Shown one piece after another: positions 17,001 to 32,600 of a stretch of 64,000 bases of DNA. Under the pieces are notes generated by a model, which worked only from the letters and a program-made list of their open reading frames with translations, was not told where the DNA came from and searched no databases. The DNA comes from an uncultured Candidatus Rokubacteria bacterium (lineage in GTDB: Bacteria > Methylomirabilota > Methylomirabilia > Rokubacteriales > CSP1-6): positions 160,001 to 224,000 of the forward strand of contig CAWBMV010000034.1 of assembly GCA_963789955.1 (NCBI GenBank), read 5' to 3'. Within the stretch, counting starts at the first letter, position 1; every line of letters begins with the position of its first letter. The position numbers and the translations under genes were made by a program.

Positions 17001-18306
17001 GGACGAAGATCACCTGGAACAGGGGGTTCTGGCCCAGCGCTCGCTCGGGCTGCAGATCCTCGACGAGCTTCTCGAATGGCATGTCCTGGTGCTCGAAGGC
17101 GCCGAGCGTGACGTCACGGACGCGAGTGAGCAGGTCGCTGAACGTGGGGTCTCCGGTGAGATCGAATCTCAAGACCAGCGTATTGGCGAACAGGCCGATC
17201 AGGCCCTCCAGCTCCATCCGGGTACGGTTGGCGACGGGGCTGCCCACGACGATGTCACTCTCACCGCTGTGACGGTGGAGGAGCGCGACGAATGCCGCCA
17301 GCAAGGTCATGAACGGTGTGACGCTATGCTGGCGCGCCGCGGCCCTGACGGCGCCCGATAGCGCGGGTGACAGTTCGAACACGTGGGCCGCGCCCGCCGA
17401 CCCGGATTGCACCGATCGCCGCCGATCGGTGGGCAAAGCCAGCGATCCAGGCGCGCCCCGCAGACGGCTCAGCCAGTATTCGCGCTGACGCTCGAGCACG
17501 CCTCCCTTGAGCGAGCGACGCTGCCAGGCCGCGAAGTCGGAATACTGCAACGGCAGGTCGGGAAGCGACGGCGCCTGCCCCCGGACGTAGGCGTCGTAGA
17601 GGTGACCGACCTCCCGCACGAGAACAGCGAGCGACCAGCCGTCGAATACCGAGTGGTGGACGGCGAACAGCACCCGATGTTCCGTCGCGCTCAGGCGAAG
17701 GAGCCGTACCCTGAACAGCGGGCCCGTCGCCAGATCGAACGGCCGTCGCGCTTCATCCTGCGCGAGGCGCTCCGCCGCCGGCCCCCGATCCGGTTCGGCC
17801 AAATCCGAAAGGTCGTGAATGGGTAGCGCCAGCGGCGCGGCCGGTGCGGTCATCTGCACCGGCTCGCCGTCGACGTTCACGAAGGTTGTCCGGAGGATCT
17901 CGTGACGCTCGACCACGGCCGCCAGCGCTTGCGCGAGGGCGTTGACGTCGATCGGCCCCTCGAGTCGGGACCAGGCCGCGATCGTGTAGGCGCTGCTGTC
18001 CGGCTCGAGTTGGTGAAGGAACCACAGGCGTTGCTGGGCGAACGACAGCGGAGCCGTGCCGTCGCTCTCCCGGCGCCTGATGCGGTCGAGCGGTATCTGC
18101 GCGCCGCTCTCCGCCAGCGCGGCCAGGATCTCGTCGCGATGCTGGGCCAGCTCGTCTCGCAGGGCATCGGTCAAGACGCCCTTGGGCGCGCTGACTCGCA
18201 CCCGGCCGTCGTCAGCCCACAGCCGGACGCCGAGGCCGCGCAGGCGCTCGAGGAGACTCGACGTACCGGTGGCTGCCCGACCGCGGGGCGGCGGCCCTGG
18301 CGTCAC
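14081..18306 (-). CDS. NRPS-3, terminal: beta-hairpin docking-C-A(Gly)-T-TE (many indels in 15100-16900)
   Basis: TubC_N-like N-terminus; C motif HHSVFDGWS; A motifs [35 protein letters not shown] (code DILQLGVIWK); T GGHSLL; TE GACIG. Confidence 0.9.
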
Positions 18307-29618: not shown

Positions 29619-32600
29619 ATCCGGCCTTCCTCGAAGTCGTCGGCCACAGTGGGCGGCGACTCCACGACGCTCGCGGTTTCGAGGCGCGTCGTCACGAAGG
29701 CCAGCAGTGTCGCCACACTCGGCCGCTCGAGGAGCTGGACCATCGGAAGGGCGATGCCGAAATCGCGCTCGATGCGGTTCTTGAGCTCGACCGCCATCAG
29801 CGAGTCGAACCCGAGCTCACCGAGCGGCTGCTCGGCGTCCAGCTCGGCTGTCGGCACACCGGTGATCGCCGCGACTTGATCTGTCAAATAGCCGGCCAGG
29901 GTGTCGCGCCGCGCGACCTCGTCCAGCTGTCGAATCGACCCGGCGCCGGGGACCGGAGGCCCGGATACTCCATCCTGCAACGCGTCGCCCAGATCGCGGA
30001 GAAGCGGGGCCTGCATGAACGTCGGATAGAGCTGCCGCCAGCGCCGCCAGTCTATCGGGAGCACCGCCGCCTGCGTTGCGCCGCTGAGCAGGATACGCCG
30101 GAGCGCCTCGATCCCGGCGGCCGGCGTGATCATCGCCTCCTCCGCGGTTGCTCCGACCGGCCGGCGCGCCACGCGCGCCGCCATTCCGATTTCCGACCAC
30201 GCCGCCCAGTTGATGCTCACCGCGTGGCGGCCGAGGGCCAGGCGGTGGTGCGCGAGGGAGTCGAGGAATGCATTGGCGGCGGCATATCCGCTGACCAGGG
30301 GCGAGCTGAGCACGGAAGCCGCCGACGAGAACAGCACGAAGAAGTCGAGCGGTGCGTCGGCGAGGAGCCGATGCAACAGCCACGCGCCGGCGATCTTCGC
30401 GCGGCCGACCGCGATCTGCGCGGCCGCGTCGTACTCTTCCATCGCCTGATACTGCATGACTCCGGCCGCATGGATGACGCCACGAATCGGTGGCCAGCCC
30501 TGCTGCCGGAAGCCCTCGAGAAATTCCCCCAGTGCGCGTGCGTCGCCGACGTCGATGCCGGCCAGGTGAACGCTGGCTCCCTGGCGCTCGAGATCACGGA
30601 CCGCTCTCGCCTGATCCGCCTGCGTCCCCGGGGGGAGCGTCGACCAGAGCGCGCGAGGCGGAAGCGAGGTGCGGCCCAGGAGGATCAGGCGCCGGGCGCC
30701 TTGCTCGACCATCCACCGTGCGACCTCCAACCCGAGTCCGCCCAGCCCTCCGGTGACGAGGTACGTGGCGTCGACGCGCCAATGGAGGTTCCGAGACGTC
30801 GGGCTCCGGCGGAACCGTCCGAGGCGGGCGACGAATCGGACACCGTCGCGAAACGCGACCTGATCCTCACCGTCGCTCGCGGCGATCTCGTCGTAGAGCA
30901 ACGCCGCGGAAGCATTCGGAGGGGTCTGGGCGTCGAGGTCGAGCAGACCTCCCCATAGCTCTGAATGCTCGACGGCCAGACTGCGACCGAAGCCCCACAG
31001 CGGCGACTGGGCTACCGCCAGCGGCGTCGGTCCACCAACCGGCTGAGCGCCGCGCGTCACGAGCCACATTCTTGGCCGCGGGCCCTCGGCGGGCCGAGTC
31101 AGGGCCTGCACGACCCGCACGGCGCTCATCCACCCGAGCGTCTGGACCGTCTCGAGCGGCCCGATGTCCAGCTGATCGCCAGACGGACTGTCGAGGCTCC
31201 ACAGATGAACGACGTGGGTGACCGGACGCTCGCCGGGCGCGGCCGCATCGATCAGCGATCGCATATCGGATACCGCGTCGACACGAATCGTGTAGGTGTC
31301 GTGCCCGGTCTGCTCGAACCGCGCGCCGCGACGGACGCGCACGCATCGCCCGCCCCGCGATCCGAGCTCGGCCGCCAGCGCCCGGCCCACTCCGCCCTCG
31401 TCCTCGAAGATCAGCCAGGCCGAATCCGTCGTCGCGGGCGCCGCTCGTTCGCGCCCTCGTCGCTCCCATCGAAGCTGGTAGAGCCAGTTGTCCGCACTCC
31501 GCGTCGTCGGCGCCGCATCGTCGGAGTCCAGGTACCAGAAGCGAACGCCGAGCAGCTCTGCGACGACGGCCTCGTGCTCGTCGTAGATCCGGATGTCGCC
31601 GCTCAAGACGTTGCTCGCACCCTTCGTGGCCTTCACGGCACGCGCGTGCGACCAGAATCGTTCGCCGCGGAGCGGACGGTGGATACGGACCTCGTCGATG
31701 CCGCCTCCGACGAACGCTCCGCGGGTACGCGAGGCACCCTCCGCCGGACGGATGGCGGCGAGCAGTTGACCACACGCGTCCGCCACCGCGGGATGGAAGC
31801 GATACTTGACCATGTCCGCGCGCAGCGCCGGCACTGCTTGCACCTCGCTCACGACCTCCTCGCCGGCCCGCCACAAGCGCACGAGACCTTGAAAGCACGG
31901 TCCCCACTGGTTTCCCCGCCGGGCCAGCTCGTGGTAAAACGCCGTCCCGGCCAGCTCCTCTGTGCACCGTGCGCGCGCCTCGTTCAACGCCGACGGCGCC
32001 GTGAGCGCAGGAGCACCCTCGTCCGGCCGTCTGAGACGGCCGCTCACGTGACGCACCCACGCGGCCGCCGAGTGCGGGCCGCGGGCGCTGTCGGCGGGTC
32101 TCGTGTACACGGCAAACGTTCCGTGGTCCTCCGTGGACATCGAGATGACGACCTGGCTTCTCAGCGCGCCCGCGTTGATCAGCAGTGGCACTTCGTACGC
32201 GACGTCCGTCAGCACGCAGGGCCTGTCGCCGAACAGCTCGCTGGCGGCTGCGACGACCATCTCCGTGTACGCCGCGGCTGGAAACACGACGGCGCCCTGG
32301 ATGCGGTGATCGTCGAGATACGGCAGGCGAGTGCGATCGAGTACCCCCTCCCAGACGTGTGTGGCGTCGAGTGACGCGACCTCGAGTCGACGGCCCAGCA
32401 GTGGGTGGCCGCCGACGCCGTGTCCTTCCCCCGGCCGGGCCGCTGGCTCATCGTCCGGCGCGAGCCAAAACGGCTCTCGCTGGAACGGGTAGGTCGGCAG
32501 CGATATCCGTCTCCGGGGCCGATCCTCCCGGTGGACGCCCGCCCAGTCGACGTCGACTCCGCCGACGTAGGCGGCCGCAAGGCCATCGAGCATCTGCTGA

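Follow-up and report, generated by a model that had tools for sequence, protein, structure and literature searches.

The question raised by this locus is whether the last proteins of a hybrid assembly line act in the order of their genes. The locus belongs to an uncultured Candidatus Rokubacteria bacterium (assembly GCA_963789955.1; 6.77 Mb, 38 contigs, 87.2% complete, GC ~70%), and the stretch analysed, called the window below, comprises 64,000 nucleotides of contig CAWBMV010000034.1 (positions 160,001 to 224,000 of the forward strand). The cluster of polyketide synthase (PKS) and nonribosomal peptide synthetase (NRPS) genes is ~55 kb long, lies entirely on the minus strand and has the order type II thioesterase (TE), phosphopantetheinyl transferase (PPTase), A-KR-T starter, five PKS modules, NRPS-1, NRPS-2, PKS6, NRPS-3-TE and ABC exporter; the analysis centres on the end of this line. 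Domains are adenylation (A), condensation (C), thiolation or carrier (T), ketosynthase (KS), acyltransferase (AT), dehydratase (DH), methyltransferase (MT), enoylreductase (ER), ketoreductase (KR) and acyl carrier protein (ACP); SLiM denotes a short linear motif at a C-terminus. The tail is made up of the following features.

29615..35233, minus strand: PKS module 5, KS-AT-DH-KR-ACP, with the C-terminal SLiM DDFEEGRI (Gly at -3).
26268..29618, minus strand: NRPS-1, hairpin-C-A-T in an intact 1116-aa frame, A domain predicted to select Leu.
29460..29606, minus strand: hairpin docking domain 1, in NRPS-1, LRFRAP, aromatic class.
26271..26489, minus strand: T domain of NRPS-1, KS-donor class, short tail, no SLiM.
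22919..26271, minus strand: NRPS-2, hairpin-C-A-T, A domain predicted to select Gly, KS-donor T with a short tail; frameshifted in the window.
26110..26259, minus strand: hairpin docking domain 2, in NRPS-2, LRISAP, non-aromatic class.
18303..22922, minus strand: PKS6, a stand-alone hybrid-type KS-AT-KR-ACP with no N-terminal leader, a C-donor-type ACP and the SLiM EREEIEL.
14081..18306, minus strand: NRPS-3, hairpin-C-A-T-TE (GACIGG), A domain predicted to select Gly; its hairpin 3 (VRVSAP) is of the non-aromatic class.

All four junctions of the tail are 4-base stop/start overlaps (ATGA). The A-domain pockets, partly read by eye, are DAWFLGHVVK in NRPS-1 and DILQLGVIWK in NRPS-2 and NRPS-3, which we take to be codes for Leu and Gly, respectively. 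These signatures suggest, with a probability of about 0.5, that the last proteins do not act in gene order and that PKS6 is used more than once.

Pfam TubC_N (PF18563) was matched at the N-termini of NRPS-1, NRPS-2 and NRPS-3 and nowhere else in the genome, and the matches of these hairpin domains in the PDB were TubC, AerJ, EpoB and 6cgo. An acidic SLiM stands directly before a hairpin for module 5 and PKS6 and is absent for NRPS-1, which ends in the non-acidic AARTTMTS, so that two SLiMs face three hairpins; two of the three junctions place the cluster among the SLiM/hairpin-docked hybrids. A first-pass annotation of this DNA had counted the same three hairpins and two acidic tails and had read the same NRPS-1 end; the Pfam matches and C-terminal sequences bear it out. 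A corrected NRPS-1 C-terminus might have carried an acidic motif, and neither alternative frame does: one stops at RRRRPPARP and the other reads through into NRPS-2.

Carriers were classified by the domain that they feed. The best 120 of 2144 matches to the NRPS-1 carrier were combined with the open reading frames of 102 fetched loci, and 437 distinct A-T carriers were labelled by the next in-cis domain (34 KS, 351 C, 35 TE, 16 E and 1 Cy); having been gathered with the NRPS-1 carrier as query, this set is not a random sample. KS-labelled carriers made up 18 of the 20 nearest to the NRPS-1 T domain and 19 of the 20 nearest to that of NRPS-2 (base rate 34/437), and all 20 nearest to the PKS6 ACP were C-labelled, which agrees with the earlier proposal that the NRPS-1 T domain resembles that of NRPS-2 rather than the PKS6 carrier. 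Leave-one-protein-out tests recovered 33/34 KS carriers and assigned none of the 120 C carriers sampled to the KS class; the classifier did not resolve TE carriers (17/35). Two of all 351 C carriers were KS-type (L035 and L038, which are kin). Where a carrier ended its gene and the next gene was visible, KS-type carriers stood before a KS in six cases and before a C domain in one (L063), and C-type carriers before C or hairpin-C in 26 and before a KS in one, a mis-anchored row. On a tree of 88 carriers, labelled by downstream partner as the first-pass annotation had proposed, the labels cluster with 7 changes (0/200 shuffles as low), and the NRPS-1 T domain sits among the KS carriers, on unstarred branches. 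The classes of the starter T domain, the NRPS-2 T domain and the PKS6 ACP agree with the next domain in gene order; the colinear expectation that carrier class matches the next catalytic domain fails for NRPS-1, a KS-type T before a C domain. L035:8018-17062 and L038:7985-17062 are Micromonospora NRPSs in which a C domain immediately follows the KS-type carrier in cis, an arrangement that a deleted PKS module may have left behind as a scar.

The surroundings of hairpin domains were surveyed at other loci. From 137 hairpins in a first survey, 74 were dropped for having no carrier within 600 nt, 11 as unclassifiable, one as fused and one as the window's own; 49 of the 50 kept junctions had a C-type carrier with a SLiM, and one had a C-type carrier without (L173). 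A hold-out survey of 63 loci gave 61 new hairpins, 23 of them dropped for lack of a carrier, and all 38 remaining junctions had a SLiM, behind carriers that were C-type (32), unclassified (5) or weakly KS-type (one, 4/7). Across both samples, which are rich in related cyanobacteria, a SLiM was present in 87/88 other junctions and a KS-type carrier without SLiM in 0/88; the NRPS-1/NRPS-2 junction is the only surveyed one to combine the two. Most of the 52 hairpin-C genes without a carrier directly upstream lie behind unrelated genes or gaps, and gene adjacency therefore does not imply docking partnership. In several genomes (L105, L141, L183 and others), stand-alone thioesterases with a hairpin docking domain lie behind SLiM-ended NRPSs.

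The last 127 residues of NRPS-1 matched 120 short proteins, of which 118 were classifiable and 114 KS-type. The tails of 88 of these are longer and mostly basic; the other 26, some of which may be cut at contig ends, have tails of 5-16 residues (e.g. LSQAPAAPGRSR). A genome of the same family, G181, holds on two contigs with a 14-base overlap a hairpin-C-A(Gly)-T protein ending in LARSTAGAAVR, whose short-tailed KS-type T domain is followed, across an ATGA overlap, by a stand-alone KS-AT-KR-ACP-DREEIDL. Because of these short-tailed relatives and the G181 interface, the NRPS-1 tail looks like a natural short KS-donor end, akin to that of NRPS-2. G181 thus shares with the window the interface from a short-tailed T domain to a stand-alone KS-AT-KR-ACP-SLiM protein, and the multi-PKS line of genome G050 ends in EEGQI, with a hairpin that is sister to hairpin 1. 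Both differ from the window in having one donor per acceptor and a colinear reading, at identities of ~40-65%. G181 (L255:6970-19974 and L254) also contains a PKS ending in ACP-C-SLiM, followed by a hairpin-C NRPS, with two C domains in series; as its two DREEIDL tails are identical, this line could also loop.

Which tail fits which hairpin was asked of the surveyed pairs. In the first 50, Gly at -3 went with F or Y in the second hairpin strand in 11/11 pairs and other residues with a non-aromatic hairpin in 37/39, a pattern found post hoc; mutual information peaks at this hairpin column (0.65, against 0.35 for the runner-up), and a tree that leaves the column out requires 9 changes of the Gly label. 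In the hold-out set, with the prediction noted beforehand, 35/38 pairs fitted (Gly/aromatic 12/12, non-Gly/non-aromatic 23/26), and the 3 misses all have Glu at -3. In the accessible text of the Kj12 study (10.1101/349555; the other sources below are likewise cited from their accessible text), Tyr27 of the nuclear magnetic resonance (NMR) complex packs on Gly1566, and a larger residue in place of Gly weakens affinity. Judging from the R-x-x-Y spacing, the surveyed column probably corresponds to Kj12 Tyr27, and similar pairings may already stand in the supplements of that study. Applied to the window, the rule fits EEGRI of module 5 to hairpin 1 (F) and EEIEL of PKS6, with Ile at -3, to hairpins 2 (I) and 3 (V); since the module 5 tail fits hairpin 1 alone, no SLiM donor other than PKS6 fits NRPS-2.

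The top two matches of the NRPS-1 C domain (C1) follow DH-KR PKS modules, and those of NRPS-2 and NRPS-3 (C2 and C3) are peptide-type; the C-domain neighbours gave no separation of peptide donors from hybrid-PKS donors. Tail pairing and the neighbours of C1, which alone lies near C domains after DH-KR modules, disfavour the earlier alternative that NRPS-1 and NRPS-2 are interchangeable. Unlike in combinatorial docking, the alternative acceptors do not share a hairpin class (1 aromatic, 2 non-aromatic). Such docking is reportedly used in the vatiamide system, which had been offered as a precedent.

The window is rich in frameshifts, and none falls between 33061 and 25264 (~7.8 kb, including the NRPS-1 tail). 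Frameshift-free homologues of NRPS-2 (P0123, 1118 aa), PKS6 (P0129, 1533 aa) and NRPS-3 (P0127, 1360 aa) were found in JGI/IMG, on contigs that all measure 16,142 bp and are probably one and the same; the homologues are about 93-97% identical to the window proteins in long clean stretches. Their existence in another assembly indicates that the frame breaks in NRPS-2, PKS6 and NRPS-3 are sequencing errors and, as the homologues are separate and intact, that NRPS-2 is not fused to PKS6. The KS core of PKS6 (21894-22513) is 72-86% identical to P0129, versus 96% for AT-KR-ACP, which could reflect polishing errors or a real KS exchange. A search of sequencing runs gave a best share of words of 0.17. 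One run contig (X2 record 15) covers 26252-26493, the NRPS-1/NRPS-2 junction, with net -3 bases and ~16-19 bases past the junction, and another (X3 record 19) covers 22902-23383 with net +1 base; both reach <31 bases past their junctions and were not counted as bridging.

Under the proposed non-colinear route, with putative hand-overs, predicted specificities and a presumed KR activity, the Gly(-3) SLiM of module 5 would dock on the aromatic-class hairpin of NRPS-1, and Leu would be added. The KS-donor T domain of NRPS-1 would load the KS of PKS6 directly, and malonyl extension with KR reduction would give a statine-like unit. PKS6 would then dock through its Ile(-3) SLiM on NRPS-2 (Gly), the T domain of which would return the chain to the same KS to form a 4-amino-3-hydroxybutyryl (GABOB) unit; docking of PKS6 on NRPS-3 (Gly) would follow, and the TE would release the product. 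The expected products would be polyketide-Sta-(GABOB)n-Gly (Sta, statine), in which n would depend on how NRPS-2 and NRPS-3 compete, with congeners 101.048 Da apart. Two NRPS carriers are KS-type and a single hybrid KS lies downstream, so the cluster has fewer PKS modules than KS-directed donors, and no modular KS was found outside it in the 87.2% complete assembly (five non-cluster matches, 32-37% over <=244 aa). Because there are two such donors, one downstream hybrid KS and no other modular KS, the looped route is the simplest that uses every gene. Tentatively, we put forward the more general picture of a stand-alone KS-AT-KR-ACP hub that two different single-module NRPSs supply in trans and that would make statine and then at least one 4-amino-3-hydroxybutyryl unit in the same chain. 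Two separable codes would set the route: carrier class with a short tail for the transfer from T to KS, and a one-residue SLiM-hairpin switch between Gly/aromatic and aliphatic/small pairs for docking. The steps from NRPS-1 to the PKS6 KS, and from PKS6 to NRPS-2 as well as NRPS-3, had been suggested from the letters of the DNA; carrier class, junction survey and pairing rule support them, while published SLiM-independent docking keeps the colinear reading alive.

Several observations weigh against the looped route. Gene order favours colinearity, and the missing SLiM does not forbid a transfer from NRPS-1 to NRPS-2, because the SLiM is dispensable in FR-901375 biosynthesis. KS-type carriers before C domains do occur, in cis in the kin pair L035/L038 and, with the C domain in the next gene, in L063. 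The two closest relatives of the PKS6 KS, at 70% and 65% and both from kin of the same family, come after Gly modules, and one after a Leu-like pocket is at 52%, in a comparison whose third KS piece crosses a frame break; further down the ranking the A-domain types are mixed. The C2 domain is an ordinary peptide-type domain that does not tell donors apart, and the searches gave no orthologue of NRPS-1 that could corroborate its tail. The pairing rule is not kin-corrected, and with 1 independent pair on starred branches a kin-corrected test is underpowered; SLiM/hairpin pairs are moreover documented as promiscuous (PMC9113145). Finally, an apparently colinear line in G181 has two identical DREEIDL tails and two hairpins of the non-aromatic class; compatible tails are therefore no proof of a loop. 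Complex predictions of the NRPS-1 T domain with the KS dimer of P0129 (runs at 0.01, 0.54 and 0.00, controls not folded) are evidence neither way.

The strongest alternative that these points leave is a colinear line with SLiM-free docking, in which the NRPS-1 T domain, a relic of a T-to-KS junction, passes acyl-Leu to the C domain of NRPS-2 through contact between hairpin and carrier, giving polyketide-Leu-Gly-GABOB-Gly. Besides gene order, ATGA coupling, the peptide-type C2 and the Gly modules before the nearest relatives of the PKS6 KS, it can draw on the KS-type carriers of L035/L038 and L063 and on the PcdC-PcdK pair of FR-901375/romidepsin, where the hairpin grips the body of the carrier by direct contact with the ACP and the SLiM is dispensable (PMC13324335). 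That system shares with the window a hairpin-C subunit able to accept without a SLiM; it differs in that its carriers are PKS ACPs that still bear a SLiM and a conserved epitope (PMC13324335), whereas NRPS-1 offers a KS-donor peptidyl carrier protein (PCP) without a SLiM. No surveyed junction looks alike (0/88), and the T domain and tail of NRPS-1 match the class that feeds PKS6-type modules. We consider a colinear tail unlikely; were it true, the locus would hold a natural SLiM-less KS-type carrier feeding a hairpin-C domain, informative but less surprising.

It is improbable that the line branches without looping, running from NRPS-1 to PKS6 to NRPS-3 with NRPS-2 idle or serving as an alternative first module fed by module 5, so that Sta-Gly and/or GABOB-Gly congeners would arise. 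Both T domains are KS-type with short tails and SLiMs can be promiscuous, as this requires, but Gly(-3) tails were paired with an aromatic hairpin in 23/23 surveyed cases and the NRPS-2 hairpin is non-aromatic, C1 rather than C2 is nearest to C domains after DH-KR modules, and NRPS-2 is intact in another assembly.

Quite improbable, too, is the loss or non-assembly of a second PKS gene between NRPS-1 and NRPS-2, with the line stalling at NRPS-1 or using the missing gene. All signatures would fit an ancestral order NRPS-1/PKS/NRPS-2/PKS/NRPS-3, the assembly is incomplete (87.2%, 38 contigs) and direct repeats flank the cluster as if it were an acquired island; against this stand the lack of another modular KS in the assembly, the tight ATGA coupling, the intact NRPS-1 frame and the contig from another run that crosses the junction without net frame change, only ~16-19 bases beyond. 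A single indel hiding an NRPS-1/NRPS-2 fusion or another tail is very improbable in spite of the many indels in the window, the alternative frame that reads through into NRPS-2 and the one fused T-hairpin junction in the survey (L137), as the surrounding 7.8 kb has no frame break, the gene call for P0123 gives a separate protein that begins with the hairpin, the NRPS-1 tail matches a natural family and an indel would leave the carrier class unchanged.

The remainder of the cluster and its surroundings comprise the following.

61837..64000, minus strand: starter A-KR-T protein, 3' part (Pfam KR and PP-binding, translation; A domain read by eye).
35230..61849, minus strand: PKS modules 1-4, broken by frameshifts (domain matches).
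12477..14080, minus strand: ABC exporter, membrane and ATPase domains, frameshifted (domain matches).
12289..12382, no strand assigned: one copy of a 94-bp direct repeat; second copy at G000:C34:228773-228866 (window-equivalent 68773-68866).

The starter gene begins near 66100, ~2.1 kb outside the window, with PPTase-like and type II TE-like genes upstream (read by eye). Its T domain is of KS-donor type (14/20 KS-labelled neighbours) with a long basic tail. Starters of the A-KR-T type usually load a 2-oxo acid and reduce it to a 2-hydroxy acid, and the hydroxyl so derived could serve as the site of ring closure by the TE. The Cys-type TE of NRPS-3 was considered as a special feature and rejected, Cys being present in 19/51 TEs scored. 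PKS modules 1 and 3 are KS-AT-DH-MT-ER-KR-ACP, module 4 is KS-AT-DH-MT-KR-ACP, and module 2 (49800-54235) is KS-AT-MT-ACP, with no DH or KR match in an error-rich stretch. The two repeat copies are 93.6% identical and ~56 kb apart, include the first codons of a dehydratase gene and bracket the whole cluster, like an integration footprint or the edges of an acquired island; GC is 70.4% between them versus 68-69% outside. Elsewhere in the genome a second NRPS (G000:C1:534276-541502) has two modules and a TE and no hairpin domain. Genes at window positions 4297-10170, read by eye, resemble those for a beta-N-acetylhexosaminidase, a DUF1343-type protein and a MurQ-like etherase (peptidoglycan recycling).

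In searches for orthologues the cluster as a whole had no close counterpart. The best match to the NRPS-2 N-terminus among 60 relatives was 57%; a genome-contig search gave 60 loci (best 55%) and a metagenome-contig search at least 35 loci, with two near-full-length matches among those listed, at 38-40%. PKS6 was matched in 8/251 genomes of the phylum including its own (best 55%, in a stricter first look), all 1414 records of a plasmid search were <60%, and no NRPS-1 homologue above 62% was found. Nor was a published description found of the cluster, of a statine-GABOB product or of carrier classes by downstream KS, most subscription journals lying outside coverage.

Of the precedents named in the first-pass annotation, thalassospiramide stands, and pepstatin is closer. 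For pepstatin (PepB/PepC/PepD), a single free-standing PKS has been proposed to work in trans on two occasions, starting from Leu and giving gamma-amino-beta-oxy units (PMC12081711). That PKS lacks a KR and is supplied on both occasions by one and the same Leu NRPS, and PepI carries out the reduction after release; in the window the single KS-AT-KR-ACP would be supplied by two NRPSs of different specificity, one for Leu and one for Gly. The accessible text on pepstatin gives no docking basis (PMC12081711), and the route in the window is read from docking signatures. In thalassospiramide biosynthesis a PKS module hands the chain back to an NRPS module upstream of it, and the chain then goes through the PKS once more, but inside a multimodular protein and with the same modules repeated (10.1101/560987), whereas here it would pass between separate proteins via SLiM and hairpin. 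The rhabdopeptide system Kj12ABC resembles the window in its three hairpins, two SLiMs, non-linear single-module subunits and Tyr-Gly packing, and differs in being NRPS only and stochastic (10.1101/349555, PMC9113145); in the window a PKS would be the hub, a KS would receive chains from two subunits that lack a SLiM, and the two SLiMs present belong to separate pairing classes. Reuse of a PKS is already known from pepstatin and thalassospiramide, and the proposed route would differ from these in that two different NRPSs feed one KR-bearing PKS via separate proteins.

The anomaly at the NRPS-1/NRPS-2 junction is real, and from the protein signatures module reuse is probable. If the looped route is true, prediction of the product from gene order is wrong here, and the compound would contain statine, the aspartic-protease-inhibiting unit of pepstatin, and a variable number of gamma-amino-hydroxy units. 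Module reuse has so far mostly been recognised once a product was in hand. The four-protein, single-module tail is small enough to reconstitute, which makes the choice between looping back and moving on testable. Tests of carrier class and of the SLiM -3 and hairpin residues could flag further non-colinear clusters and guide docking-domain engineering, and the two codes together would allow sequence-based prediction of non-colinear routes across uncultured bacteria.

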